Positions 6,972-40,293 of a stretch of 40,896 nt of DNA are shown here, piece by piece. This DNA comes from a virus. Its lineage: Duplodnaviria > Heunggongvirae > Uroviricota > Caudoviricetes. Made by a program: the position numbers and the translations under genes. The notes beneath the pieces were generated by a model. The model had not been told where the DNA came from, searched no databases, and saw nothing but the letters and a program-made list of their open reading frames with translations. Location of the stretch: IMG/VR virus record IMGVR_UViG_2874920711_000001; one strand, given 5' to 3'. Position 1 is the stretch's first letter. Each line of letters starts with the position of its first letter.

Positions 6972-8191
6972 TGTAGATTCAATCTGTCAATGCAACACCC
7001 CTTTCAATTATCTCTTTCGGTGTTTTGAACTTCAGTGTCTTTCTCGGTCTGTTGTTTAGCTGAGCAGCAACCAGATCTAGTTCATGTTGAGTATATTGGG
7101 CAAGACATGTCTTTTTAGGAAAGTACTGCCGAATTAGCCCATTTGTGTTCTCATTTGTTCCCCGCTGCCAAGGACTCTGAGGATCGCAGAAGTAAACTTT
7201 AACGCCGGTGCTGACAGTAAATTCTAGATGTCTGGCCAGTTCCATTCCTCTGTCCCATGTCAGTGATTTTCTGAGTTCTGACGGTAAACTCAGGAATTTG
7301 TCGGTAAGAGCCTGATTTACTGAGACAGAATCTTTGCCCCTGAGTCTAAGGATGATCGTATAACGTGATTTTCGGTCTACAAGTGTGGCTATATGAGAGT
7401 TTTTTGTACCTGAGACTAAATCGCCCTCCCAATGCCCAGAGAGCGTCTGTTATCGATATTTCGGGAACGTTCGTGAATTGGTGTTCCGTTCACTATGTTA
7501 ATCGTACCTCTTTCGCCTTTGCGGGTATGACGCCTGCCATGGCGAAGGCTATGCGACCGTCGCAGATGCTGTATATTCAGGTGGTGTAGCGCTTCACGGC
7601 TACGAAAGTACAGCGTTTTATAAATTGTCTCAGGTGATATTCGCAGCGTTTTTTGACGTGGTTTTGTTCGCCTTAACCATCCTGATATTTGCTCTGGAGA
7701 CCATTTCATCTCCAGCTTTTCCAGAACAAGCTTTCGCAATGGTAAATTTTGATCCAGTAAGCACGGTTTTGGCCTTTTCGCCATTCTGTTGGCTCGGTTA
7801 TTAGCATCAACAGCTTTGTAATAGCGTCTGCCCCGATTACGCTGAACTTCACGTGAGATCGTCGAAGGACTGCGATTCAGCGCAGTAGCTATCGCACGAA
7901 TGCTCATTTTGGCTGACAAACCAGCTCGTATCTCCTCGCGCTCAGACAGTGTCAGGTGAGCTACAGCCCGCTTACGCTCATGGGGTTTTATGCCGCCAGT
8001 ATCCCTTAACATAGTGAAGATCGTTCCGGGTTTTGAACCCAGGATATTCGCTATTTCACTGAAGCCTGTTCCGTTCTTCCATAGTTCAAAAACAGAGGCT
8101 TTTTCCTCTGCTGTAAATGTTCGTCTCATTCAAAAAACCTCCGCAACCCCATGTTTTCACATAACTGTTGCGTTGACCAATTGAATCTACA
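6972..8191 (-). mobile_element. IS30 copy (1220 bp) nested in IS600 orfA, 2-bp duplication
   Basis: Ends TGTAGATTCAAT...; IS600 sequence resumes on both sides with a duplicated dinucleotide. Confidence 0.8.
6979..8129 (-). pseudogene. IS30 transposase, frame broken by 1-bp contraction of a C/G run near 7435
   Basis: 237-aa ORF 7416-8129 plus 88-aa ORF 6979-7245 together cover the 380-aa protein seen uninterrupted at 35531-36673. Confidence 0.8.
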
Positions 8192-8518
8192 GTTGCTTTT
8201 TTTAATATATCTCGCTCAAGGCGAGCTTCATTTAACGCCTTACGCAGTTGCAGAATTTCAGATTCCAGTTCAGCCACCGTGCGGGAACCAGGAGTACCGA
8301 GCCCTTTTCTGGCGGCGGTAACCCATTGTCCTAAAGTGCCTTCAGGAAGGGATAATCGGGAAGCGCCTTCACTGATCGAAAGTTGATTTTCAAGAACCGT
8401 TCTGACAGCTTCGGCTTTGAACTCTTTAGAGTAACGTTGGGTTTTTCTGCTCATTATTAGCTCCTTCTGATGCCATTCTATTTCAGGAAGGAGTGTCCGT
8501 TAAACTCAGGCTACCTCA

Positions 8519-9008
8519 GACTGATAAAATCCATATCCTTCACGGACTTCTGAAAACCGGACTTCACTTCCCGGCGATCAATTTTGCTCACCCCGTCAGG
8601 CGGAATGGACGTAACCCATCCCTGAAAACGCTGTATGGTTTTCTCGATAGCCTGTTCGCGGTTGAGTTTTATCAGGTTGGCACTGGCGAAAATTCGCCTG
8701 TCGAGTTCCTTGCGAAATTCAGGTTTCAGTTTTTCAACAGTGATTTTTTTAGGGCCGTCAGGAGGCTGATCCCGTAATGCCCCGCCGTCGATGACAAGAC
8801 GGCTGTAGATAGCGGTGAGATGTTTTCTGGCTACGGTATCATCAGGGGTTTCTCGCTGAGCGGCTACACGGAGTTTCCGGCACCATTCGAGCAATGATTT
8901 TTCGCTATCCCACCCGTGATTTACGTAGTAGTTAACGGCATCCGTCAGAACCTCATACAGCGTCCTGATCCGTTTCTTCTTCCTCCCCGCCCGGCTGGAA
9001 ATTGCCAT
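8519..9008 (-). pseudogene. Phage head-morphogenesis-like protein, 3' end truncated by IS600; start uncertain
   Basis: ORF downstream of the portal gene reads directly into the IS600 end at 8518. Confidence 0.35.
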
Positions 9009-37968: not shown

Positions 37969-38041
37969 AAACTTAACATATCGAAGGAGAGACAAAGCAT
38001 ATTACTGGCGCAACCCTCTGACGAAAGAAGAATTTACACTA

Positions 38042-39192
38042 AATAGCTGCGCGGAATAGTAGATCACTTTGAGGGAACTTAGCCCGGATTGTGCGATCTG
38101 ATCAATCGCCAAATCAAAACAAATCACCAACCGGACTGAGCAATGCCGATCATAGCACCAATTTCCCGTGACGAACGACGCCTGATGCAGAAAGCCATCC
38201 ATAAAACACACGATAAAAATTATGCCCGCAGACTGACTGCCATGCTGATGCTGCACCGGGCGACCGTGTCAGCGACGTTGCCAGAACGCTCTGCTGCGCC
38301 CGTTCCTCTGTTGGACGCTGGATTAACTGGTTCACGCAGTCGGGTGTTGAGGGACTGAAATCATTACCTGCCGGGCGTGCCCGTCGCTGGCCGTTTGAGC
38401 ATATCTGCACACTGTTACGTGAGCTGGTAAAACATTCTCCCGGCGACTTTGGCTACCAGCGTTCACGCTGGAGTACAGAACTGCTGGCAATAAAAATCAA
38501 TGAGATAACCGGTTGCCAGTTAAATGCCGGAACCGTTCGCCGCTGGTTGCCGTCTGCGGGGATTGTGTGGCGAAGGGCTGCGCCAACTCTGCGTATCCGT
38601 GACCCGCATAAAGATGAAAAGATGGCAGCAATCCATAAAGCACTGGACGAATGCAGCGCAGAGCATCCGGTCTTTTATGAAGATGAAGTGGATATCCATC
38701 TTCATCCCAAAATCGGTGCGGACTGGCAACTGCGCGGACAGCAAAAACGGGTGGTCACGCCGGGACAGAATGAAAAATATTATCTGGCCGGAGCGCTGCA
38801 CAGCGGGACAGGTAAAGTCAGCTATGTGGGCGGCAACAGCAAAAGTTCGGCGCTGTTCATCAGCCTGCTGAAGCGGCTTAAAGCGACATACCGTCGGGCG
38901 AAAACCATCACGCTGATCGTGGACAACTACATTATCCACAAAAGCCGGGAAACACAGAGCTGGCTGAAGGAGAACCCGAAGTTCAGGGTCATTTATCAGC
39001 CGGTTTACTCGCCATGGGTGAATCATGTTGAACGGCTATGGCAGGCACTTCACGACACAATAACGCGTAATCATCAGTGCCGCTCAATGTGGCAACTGTT
39101 GAAAAAAGTTCGCCATTTTATGGAAACCGTCAGCCCATTCCCGGAGGCAAACATGGACTGGCAAAAGTGTAGCGGTATTAAGCGCAGCTATT
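38042..39192 (+). mobile_element. IS630 (Tc1/mariner-type), 1151 bp, inserted at CTAG within int with TA duplication
   Basis: Ends AATAGCTGCGC.../...GCGCAGCTATT; TA at 38040-38041 and 39193-39194; removing it restores ACACTAGGTAAA in the int frame. Confidence 0.8.
38143..39172 (+). pseudogene. IS630 transposase with two 1-bp G-run contractions (38258-38260 and 39143-39144)
   Basis: N-terminal ORF 38143-38358 (MPIIAPISRDERRLMQKAIHKTHDKNYARRLTAMLMLHR) and the body in ORF 38547-39899, which then runs on into int. Confidence 0.75.
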
Positions 39193-40293
39193 TAGGTAAA
39201 ATTTCAAGAAGAGATGCAGTAGCGCAGGCAATTGAAGCAAATCATTATATATACAAAAACTACTCTCCTGCTGCCCTAATTGAAAAGCTTAAAGGGGTCG
39301 ACTCATTTACTATGGCAGACTGGATTGAACGTTACAAAACGATTCTTATAAGGAGAAAAGCGTCCAGAAATACTTATAAAACTCGGGTAAATCAACTGGA
39401 GACAATAAAAGAAAAATTAGGAGGGGTTTTACTGACAGAAATAACCACTCGCCATATCGCCGAGTTTCTTGATTTGTGGATTGAAGGAGGGAAAAACACG
39501 ATGGCAGGATCAATGCGTTCTGTGTTATCTGATATGTTCCGCGAAGCCATTGTTGAAGGACGTATATCTCAAAATCCAGTAACGCCAACAAGAGCACCGA
39601 AAATAGTAGTTACAAGAGAACGGCTGAAACTAAAGACATACAACTGCATCAGGGAGGCAGCAGATCAACTTCCGGCATGGTTCCCATTAGCTATGGACTT
39701 AGCCCTTGTAACAGGACAACGTCGCGAAGACATAACGAATATGCGGTTCAGTGATATTTATGATGATCGTCTCCACATCAGGCAAATTAAGACAGGAATG
39801 ATGATTGCTATCCCCCTGTCACTCAGCCTTCCTGTCGCTGGTTTACGACTTGGTGCAGTAGTTAAACAGTGCCGCATGGTAAGTAGGGGGATTATCTAAT
39901 CAGTGCCGGGATTAGAAAAAACAGCCCTGACGGCAGCATTCACCCGGACGGCCTGACAAAGAAATTTGTCGCAGCCAGAAAATTAACAGGTATCCTGTTC
40001 AGTGAAAACCCACCAACTTTTCACGAAATCAGAAGCCTGGCTGGACGATTGTACAAAGAAATATGTGGAGAAGAATTTGCTCAGCGTCTACTTGGCCACA
40101 CATCGGAGAAGACAACAAAAATGTATCTTGATGAGAGAGAAAAAACGTACTTACTGCTCTGATTTTAACGTAAATGGATTGTTAAATGTATTTTGGTTGT
40201 GATATAACCAAAAAAGACCGGAATACAGAAATTCGAGTAAATTTCGGGGAATTTCGGGGAAGCATTTGTAACTAATTGATTTCAAATGCAATT

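Follow-up and report, generated by a model that had tools for sequence, protein, structure and literature searches.

The prophage locus and its affected reading frames

The window, that is, the whole stretch of 40,896 nucleotides that was analysed, comprises a degraded lambdoid prophage which sits between pphA and yebY, with an ipaH gene and numerous IS insertions. It corresponds to positions 127813-168708 of CP026824.1 (assembly GCA_002949875.1). Positions 1-14105 and 23821-40896 are 100% identical to CP026824.1, a Shigella chromosome in GenBank. Two sister assemblies, CP027027.1 and the NCTC assembly UYIS01000022.1, have an IS architecture nearly equal to that of the window, and most of the IS insertions of the prophage are common to the sister strains; the best E. 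coli references were used beside the two sisters in counting indels. The sisters are not the isolate of the window, from which they differ by 21-29 substitutions and by one IS arrangement, and a process specific to this strain is thus formally possible.

The original prediction had placed about 20 broken frames in this region, nearly all at homopolymer runs one base too short. Breaks of this kind, seen against the E. coli references and the sisters, do lie at the places indicated, and the count is about double, with 38 sites, 37 of which came from the sister comparison and one (18423) from comparison with other copies of the IS5-family element. The affected features are listed below, with the position of each contracted run and, where given, its length in the relatives and in the window.

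4106..4284, minus strand: stretch between ipaH and the tail fibre gene, with a 59-aa ORF; C run 4157-4160, four bases, five in relatives
4284..6048, minus strand: prophage tail fibre gene, 588 aa when repaired; C runs 5082 (5 to 4) and 5375 (6 to 5)
6979..8129, minus strand: IS30 transposase copy A, nested in IS600, 383 aa when repaired; C run 7435 (4 to 3)
13009..13012: intergenic G run, terminase genes/trkG (5 to 4)
13098..14553, minus strand: trkG; C runs 13226 (4 to 3) and 13515 (5 to 4)
14691..15154, minus strand: Rz-type lysis gene, 154 aa; G run 14805 (5 to 4)
15151..15646, minus strand: endolysin, 165 aa; C runs 15160 (5 to 4) and 15599 (4 to 3)
15646..15871, minus strand: class II holin, 68 aa, Pfam Phage_holin_2_1; C run 15718 (4 to 3) and, directly upstream of the start codon, C run 15867 (6 to 5)
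16121..16124: intergenic G run (5 to 4)
17897..18817, plus strand: IS5-family element; C run 18423 (4 to 3)
19127..20086, plus strand: IS600 orfB 3' end, 272 aa when repaired, 319 aa as deposited; G run 19891 (4 to 3)
20441..20444: intergenic C run (5 to 4), five bases in Logan short-read contigs and a draft assembly
21413..22618, minus strand: IS4-family element and its transposase, 397 aa when repaired; contracted runs 21413, 21941, 22168 and 22471
23388..23711, plus strand: IS600 orfA fused to the end of IS30 copy B, 122 aa in the sisters; G run 23692 (4 to 3)
23712..24862, plus strand: IS30 transposase copy B; G run 24404 (4 to 3)
24947..25822, plus strand: IS600 orfB 3' end, second copy; C run 25722 (4 to 3)
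26120..26864, minus strand: ydaV, 248 aa; C runs 26164 and 26185 (each 3 to 2)
26871..27643, minus strand: replication initiator; contracted runs 26874, 27055, 27197 and 27206
27721..28142, minus strand: ydaT, 140 aa; C run 28034 (6 to 5)
28126..28352, minus strand: Cro/ydaS-like regulator, 75 aa; C run 28260 (6 to 5)
30068..30909, plus strand: Rha regulator, 280 aa; G run 30238 (4 to 3)
31602..33541, plus strand: RecE exonuclease, 646 aa; C run 32648 (4 to 3)
35531..36673, minus strand: IS30 transposase copy C, 380 aa as deposited, 383 aa when repaired; C run 35542 (4 to 3)
37114..37352, plus strand: hypothetical 79-aa ORF; G run 37132 (5 to 4)
38143..39172, plus strand: IS630 transposase, 343 aa; runs 38258 and 39140 (4 to 3)
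39153..40162, plus strand: 3' part of the integrase; G run 39886 (6 to 5)

The original prediction was correct in stating that the IS30 copies differ from each other only at such runs. Its list lacked ydaV, Rha, RecE, several intergenic runs, the IS4-family transposase with three breaks and the IS600 orfA fusion, and three sites lie upstream of the range that it gave (4157, and 5082 and 5375, both of which disrupt the gene for the tail fibre). The replication initiator, credited with two breaks, has four 1-bp G/C deletions together with the loss of one 6-bp TCTTCC repeat unit at 27225; this loss preserves the frame and is possibly a real mutation. A single break had been assigned to an A run; no A-run event was confirmed in the window.

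Some interruptions in this region are natural. The integrase gene is genuinely interrupted by IS630. IS3- and IS5-family elements are known for programmed frameshifting, and RefSeq labels both the IS600 orfA/orfB arrangement and the frame change of the IS5-family element as 'programmed frameshift'; these frames are two-frame by design and are not to be tallied as errors, while the additional breaks at 18423, 19891 and 25722 are of the error type. Two contractions had been proposed for the IS5-family transposase. The deletion at 18423 is present, but the second break probably corresponds to the programmed frameshift annotated in intact copies, since the window differs from an intact copy of the element by one indel only, at 18423.

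A product of 191 aa encoded in the window is unique to the CP026824.1 assembly because its ORF is itself the result of a frameshift. The common Gam protein, used as a query, matched unrelated loci only.

Pattern of the indels

Compared with the sisters, the window displays 21-29 substitutions, 37 one-base deletions in G/C runs and no insertion. With the site at 18423 included, there are 38 private 1-bp deletions, all in G/C runs, against no insertion at such runs (sign test, P = 7e-12). G/C runs of at least three bases make up 5.8% of the bases in the window and hold 38 of its 40 small indels (binomial P = 7e-45). The two remaining differences are not of the error type, namely a T lost at 23078, outside any run, and the TCTTCC unit lost at 27225; in each case the window departs from both sisters. 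Among runs of at least four bases, 35 of 166 G/C runs are contracted, compared with 0 of 582 A/T runs that are 4-8 bases long (Fisher P = 6e-25); none of the 227 A/T runs of 5-8 bases differs from the sisters.

The probability of contraction climbs steeply with the true length of the run, from 3/556 (0.5%) at three bases to 16/137 (12%) at four, 13/20 (65%) at five and 6/9 (67%) at six, and no affected run has contracted by two steps. A 5' G is modestly overrepresented at the contracted runs (Fisher P = 0.01). Overall, the density is of about 0.9 deletions per kb, roughly Q30.

The errors are patchy. Between 7436 and 13008 there are 24 G/C runs of at least four bases, including one C5 and two C6, none of which is contracted (P = 0.002, before correction for the choice of segment), and the 5' G context does not account for this deletion-free stretch. 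Selection acting locally on the genes for terminase and portal was considered as its cause and rejected, since this is a defective prophage in which contracted runs also occur in intergenic DNA elsewhere; uneven read support would be the more likely origin.

Comparison with other assemblies and repair of the frames

Not one of the 37 sites covered by the sisters is common to either of them, and the longer run is present in CP027027.1, NCTC UYIS01, PSSP01, AFFZ01, Logan contigs and E. coli. Comparison with other assemblies, which had been proposed alongside the original prediction, thus found the longer runs in sister and in short-read assemblies alike. The Logan contigs, assembled from public runs of related strains and reached via IS-junction proteins, cover positions 32823-34576 of the window, with no affected site, and 19958-21430, with two, and have the longer run at both.

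Once the 38 G/C bases are added back, together with the T at 23078 in the case of a 118-aa ORF, all ORFs regain the length that they have in the sisters. After this repair 12 genes, amounting to 6,657 nt, are 100% identical to the sister genes, so that they hold no substitution vs 16 one-base deletions (15 in G/C runs and the T at 23078). Repaired trkG, for instance, spans 1458 nt and is 100% identical to the gene of the NCTC sister.

The deletions extend beyond the prophage. In CP026824.1, four of about 11 chromosomal core genes flanking the window (pqiA, rsmF, copD and ptrB) are broken in the same manner, at about 0.8 events per kb. The assembly CP026845.1, from a different lineage but from the same accession block, is contracted at seven of ten sites with runs of at least five bases and at none of four sites of length four; in pqiA and pqiB it has further G/C deletions that are private to it. 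CP026846.1 is a good assembly, CP026824 and CP026845 are bad ones, and low PacBio coverage would account for the difference.

Origin of the frame breaks

These observations argue strongly for consensus errors: the frame breaks very probably arose in a long-read assembly, most likely of PacBio RS II data, that had not been polished with accurate reads. The base caller and the consensus step would drop one base in G or C homopolymers, with a probability increasing with run length, and the true genome of the isolate would almost certainly carry the longer runs and intact frames at the 38 sites. Genuine decay of the prophage stems from the insertion of IS elements (IS600, IS600::IS30, IS630, IS4-family and IS5-family). 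The preference of the original prediction for artefacts over real pseudogenes is borne out by contractions that are private, scale with run length, affect core genes and recur in another assembly.

Shigella is a textbook case of genome decay, and its genomes are genuinely rich in pseudogenes. The region resembles such decay in being a degraded prophage with IS insertions common to the sisters; real events, however, recur in close relatives and comprise IS insertions and larger indels as well as substitutions, while the homopolymer breaks found here are all of one type and confined to a single assembly. As an inheritance test of real slippage, the contractions were looked for in the closest relatives and were absent from them, and substitutions (21-29, vs 38 indels) are not in excess, as real slippage decay would need.

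The deletions could also be real if the isolate is, or descends from, a mutator producing -1 frameshifts in G:C runs, for example through slippage of the Pol IV/DinB type or loss of mismatch repair, with consequent decay of prophage and IS genes. A bias of -1 frameshifts towards G:C runs is a described signature of Pol IV, the strain of the window is not identical to the sisters, and the run at 15867 is naturally of six or seven bases across lineages. Nevertheless, such a mutator would have contracted two thirds of the runs of five and six bases with no second step, no +1 event and no change in any A/T run of up to eight bases, and would have left 16 deletions beside no substitution in 12 genes. 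Core genes are affected at an equal density, and about 0.9 frameshifts per kb, if extrapolated to the whole genome, would disrupt most essential genes. Furthermore, an unrelated assembly of the same block (CP026845.1) is contracted at the same long runs, and published comparisons of PacBio and Illumina data for the same strains ascribe such differences to error. A mutator origin is therefore exceedingly unlikely, and it is hardly credible that the isolates of CP026824.1 and, independently, of CP026845.1 are both real hypermutators acting on G:C runs only, with runs of five and six bases saturated genome-wide.

Phase variation likewise relies on a change in the length of a mononucleotide run that switches the reading frame. 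Contingency tracts are usually longer, vary in both directions and are located in specific surface or restriction genes, unlike the runs of 3-6 bases found here, which change by contraction only and have no preferred location, being found in core genes and between genes as well.

The original prediction had considered real slippage beside errors of pyrosequencing or nanopore consensus; consensus error was upheld, but the platform was not. Homopolymer deletions are also typical of 454/Ion Torrent pyrosequencing and early nanopore consensus. On these platforms, however, A/T runs are miscalled as well, and 454 makes insertions as well as deletions, while no insertion was found in the window, none of its 227 A/T runs of at least five bases is altered, and A/T runs of up to eight bases are intact. 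AFFZ01, an older draft of a related strain, has indels in A and T runs instead, and the accession block is described as PacBio; an artefact of another platform is accordingly very unlikely, and the G/C-only pattern, in a genome of medium GC content, fits the one published for PacBio RS II (PMC8574707).

PacBio RS II assemblies are indeed known to carry systematic single-base deletions in G/C homopolymers (PMC8574707; PMC4888979), with 561 such deletions in one genome (PMC4888979). The pattern described for this platform (CLR reads, HGAP/Quiver) agrees with that of the window in consisting of one-base deletions in G/C runs mostly of 4-6 bases, with only part of the runs affected, and in published cases genes were truncated despite high coverage (PMC8574707). 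The density differs, as about 0.9 per kb is far above the 37 indels published for an E. coli test genome, which suggests that the consensus of the CP026824.1 record had low coverage or had converged poorly.

The CDC set of Kim et al. (2018) is described as 59 PacBio Shigella genomes, sequenced by PacBio only and without short-read polishing, and CP026832 and CP026840, which belong to the same block (CP0268xx) as CP026824, are cited as PacBio genomes of that set. The accession block suggests that CP026824.1 is part of this set, and PacBio RS II is its probable platform; a literature search for the accessions CP026824, CP027027 and CP026845 and for the GCA numbers found nothing, and in particular no paper naming CP026824.1. 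Yassine et al. (2022) kept the PacBio Shigella set out of cgMLST owing to 'numerous indels in the homopolymers' (PMC8795385). In same-strain comparisons of PacBio with Illumina data, which covered 11 other genomes of Kim et al., cgMLST distances ran from 9 to 584 alleles and were ascribed to error; this spread fits a good CP026846 beside bad CP026824 and CP026845.

A mixed origin, in which most contractions are errors and a few differences are genuine mutations of the isolate, is conceivable but somewhat unlikely. The loss of T at 23078, outside any run, and that of TCTTCC at 27225 are not of the error type, and sites with runs of three or four bases, 26164 and 26185 among them, belong to a class with a low error rate. 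On the other hand, none of the 38 G/C-run sites is common to the closest sisters and no site can be distinguished from the error class.

Implications

The frame breaks reveal no new biology, and their value is practical, as a warning for counts of pseudogenes in Shigella. At about 0.9 false frameshifts per kb, the CP026824.1 record would contribute thousands of false pseudogenes, and such records distort cgMLST, pan-genome studies, the counting of pseudogenes and any model that is trained on them. The living strain probably has an intact lysis cassette, with trkG, RecE, the genes for replication and immunity and several of the transposases likewise intact.

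Identity and content of the window

The window is a degraded lambdoid prophage located between pphA and yebY. Besides numerous IS elements, it contains four tRNA genes and the gene for an effector, ipaH. An exact match of the ipaH protein led to the source: positions 1–14105 are 100% identical to GenBank CP026824.1 (assembly GCA_002949875.1), as are positions 23821–40896 to another part of that record. Most of the IS insertions are common to two sister Shigella assemblies found in the same way, CP027027.1 and the NCTC record UYIS01000022.1. The main features are as follows.

2390–4105: ipaH, intact, 571 aa, adjoining the prophage tail fibre genes
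6033–8518: IS600 with nested IS30
16538–16848: tRNA genes Gly, Thr, Arg and one with a CAU anticodon, downstream of the lysis cassette
17808–19987: IS600 split by an IS5-family element (17897–18817)
23323–25807: IS600 with nested IS30, inverted
34577–37062: IS600 with nested IS30

The IS30 is nested at the same internal position in all three IS600 copies, a composite found at one conserved locus in about 997 complete E. coli genomes. In this Shigella lineage the whole composite appears to have been copied as one unit, with intact IS600 copies presumably acting in trans to move it. Both sisters carry the composite at the locus of 17808–19987, which reflects either a real structural strain difference or recombination between IS600 copies.

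One-base contractions of G/C runs

Aligned with the sisters, each of which matches it at 99.8–99.9% identity across some 35 kb, the window displays 37 one-base deletions in G/C runs, no insertions and 21–29 substitutions. Since the sisters lack the IS5-family element, a further deletion, at 18423, was identified by comparison with other copies of this element, giving a total of 38, or 0.93 per kb (about Q30). The original prediction that the broken frames are mostly 1-bp homopolymer contractions is thus confirmed and extended; its gene list was right as far as it went, but about half of the events had been missed, and one break counted in the IS5-family transposase is probably its programmed frameshift.

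Start positions of the 38 contracted runs
4157, 5082, 5375, 7435, 13009, 13226, 13515, 14805, 15160, 15599, 15718, 15867, 16121
18423, 19891, 20441, 21413, 21941, 22168, 22471, 23692, 24404, 25722, 26164, 26185, 26874
27055, 27197, 27206, 28034, 28260, 30238, 32648, 35542, 37132, 38258, 39140, 39886

The contracted fraction, computed with true run lengths restored, rises with run length (trend z = 14), and none of the 582 A/T runs of 4–8 bases is contracted (Fisher P = 6e-25). A sign test on the direction of the events (deletion versus insertion) gives P = 7e-12, and a binomial test on their location in G/C runs P = 7e-45. The window was also tiled with its best E. coli matches (loci L001–L011; 38,024 aligned bases), with every reference homopolymer counted. 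This gave 67 gap events, and those in cleanly aligned parts are nearly all one-base window deletions within G or C runs.

Contracted runs by length (true lengths restored; E. coli references)
G/C, 3: 3/556; 2/496
G/C, 4: 16/137; 15/121
G/C, 5: 13/20; 11/16
G/C, 6: 6/9; 3/5
A/T, 4–8: 0/582 (true lengths restored)
A/T, 3–8: 0/1306, with one +1 event (E. coli references)

The contractions are patchy across the window, likely as a result of uneven read support. The 5.6 kb of portal and terminase genes at 7436–13008 contain 24 G/C runs of at least 4 bases, including one C5 and two C6, with a further C6 at 12987, and are free of contractions, against about 4.8 expected (P = 0.002 before allowing for the choice of segment). 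Flanking-base context gave a weak signal only. The ipaH gene and the four prophage tRNA genes are likewise free of deletions.

Repaired genes

With the 38 bases put back, the open reading frames regain their full length, equal to that of the sister gene calls.

Genes restored by repair
Tail fibre: 588 aa
IS30 transposase, three copies: 383 aa
TrkG: 485 aa
Rz: 154 aa
Endolysin: 165 aa
Holin: 68 aa
IS600 OrfB, two copies: 272 aa
IS4-family transposase: 397 aa
YdaV: 248 aa
Replication initiator: full length
YdaT: 140 aa
Cro-like regulator: 75 aa
Rha: 280 aa
RecE: 646 aa
IS630 transposase: 343 aa
Integrase fragment: 336 aa

Only two small differences lie beyond the 38 sites, both sisters differing from the window at each: at 23078 one T is lost after GGG, outside any run, in a gene for a 118-aa hypothetical protein, and at 27225 one 6-bp TCTTCC unit is lost, in frame, from the replication initiator. 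Not being of homopolymer type, they are the strongest candidates for genuine mutations. Once the T at 23078 is put back as well, twelve genes (6,657 nt) become 100% identical to their sister genes; within them, no substitutions stand against 16 one-base deletions, 15 in G/C runs. Some six of the 38 sites fall between genes or in non-coding IS ends, which indicates a process blind to coding status.

The C run at 15867–15871, directly upstream of the holin start codon, has 6 or 7 bases by lineage in independent assemblies, leading gene callers to give a holin of 68/71 or 87 aa. The variation resembles a natural length polymorphism of the homopolymer, at a gene for lysis timing, and stands apart from the error class.

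Artefact or biology

Five lines of evidence point to an artefact rather than a real biological process. At every covered site the longer run is present in the sisters, in draft and short-read assemblies and in E. coli, the contractions being private to CP026824.1, in which the flanking core genes pqiA, rsmF, copD and ptrB, intact in the sisters, are broken identically (nine events in 11.3 kb). Other records of this accession block are affected at places of their own: CP026845.1, which is of a different lineage, carries four G/C deletions private to it in pqiA and pqiB, and several occur in PSSP01. Of the window's contractions, CP026845.1 also shares 7 of 10 at sites with a true length of 5–6 and none of four at sites of length 4, with the runs intact in lineages between the two, as expected from a length-dependent systematic error and not from descent. 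A real process would have to saturate two thirds of the 5–6-base runs without a second contraction or expansion, leave every A/T run of up to 8 bases unchanged and, extrapolated genome-wide, would probably destroy essential genes. The frame breaks are therefore supported as artefact and not as a biological feature, in agreement with the original prediction, which had named pyrosequencing or nanopore as the source.

The G/C-only deletions instead match PacBio. In the ARAMIS study of PacBio RS II assemblies, systematic errors were mostly single-base G or C deletions in homopolymers of 4–6 bases, which truncated genes despite coverage of 360x; for E. coli they comprised G/C deletions plus A/T insertions (PMC8574707). 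A genome note on E. faecium describes the removal of 561 such deletions with the help of Illumina data (PMC4888979), and PacBio and Illumina data from identical strains differed by 9–584 alleles (Yassine et al., Supplementary Table 1; PMC8795385). CP026832, which shares the accession block of CP026824.1, is cited as one of the PacBio genomes of Kim et al.; judging by its accession number, CP026824.1 would belong to that set, and a literature search found no paper naming it.

An older draft of a related strain, AFFZ01000060.1 (L020), displays A- and T-run indels relative to window positions 4779, 4993 and 6826, a different error signature that probably comes from another sequencing platform. 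The G/C-run signature recurs, at positions of their own, in CP026845.1 (L013, L038), where pqiA and pqiB are split into several ORFs, in PSSP01000002.1 (L018) and in CP026836.1 (L036). The problem thus touches several public Shigella records, to very different degrees. The real inactivation in this region is by IS insertions, most of them common to the sister strains.
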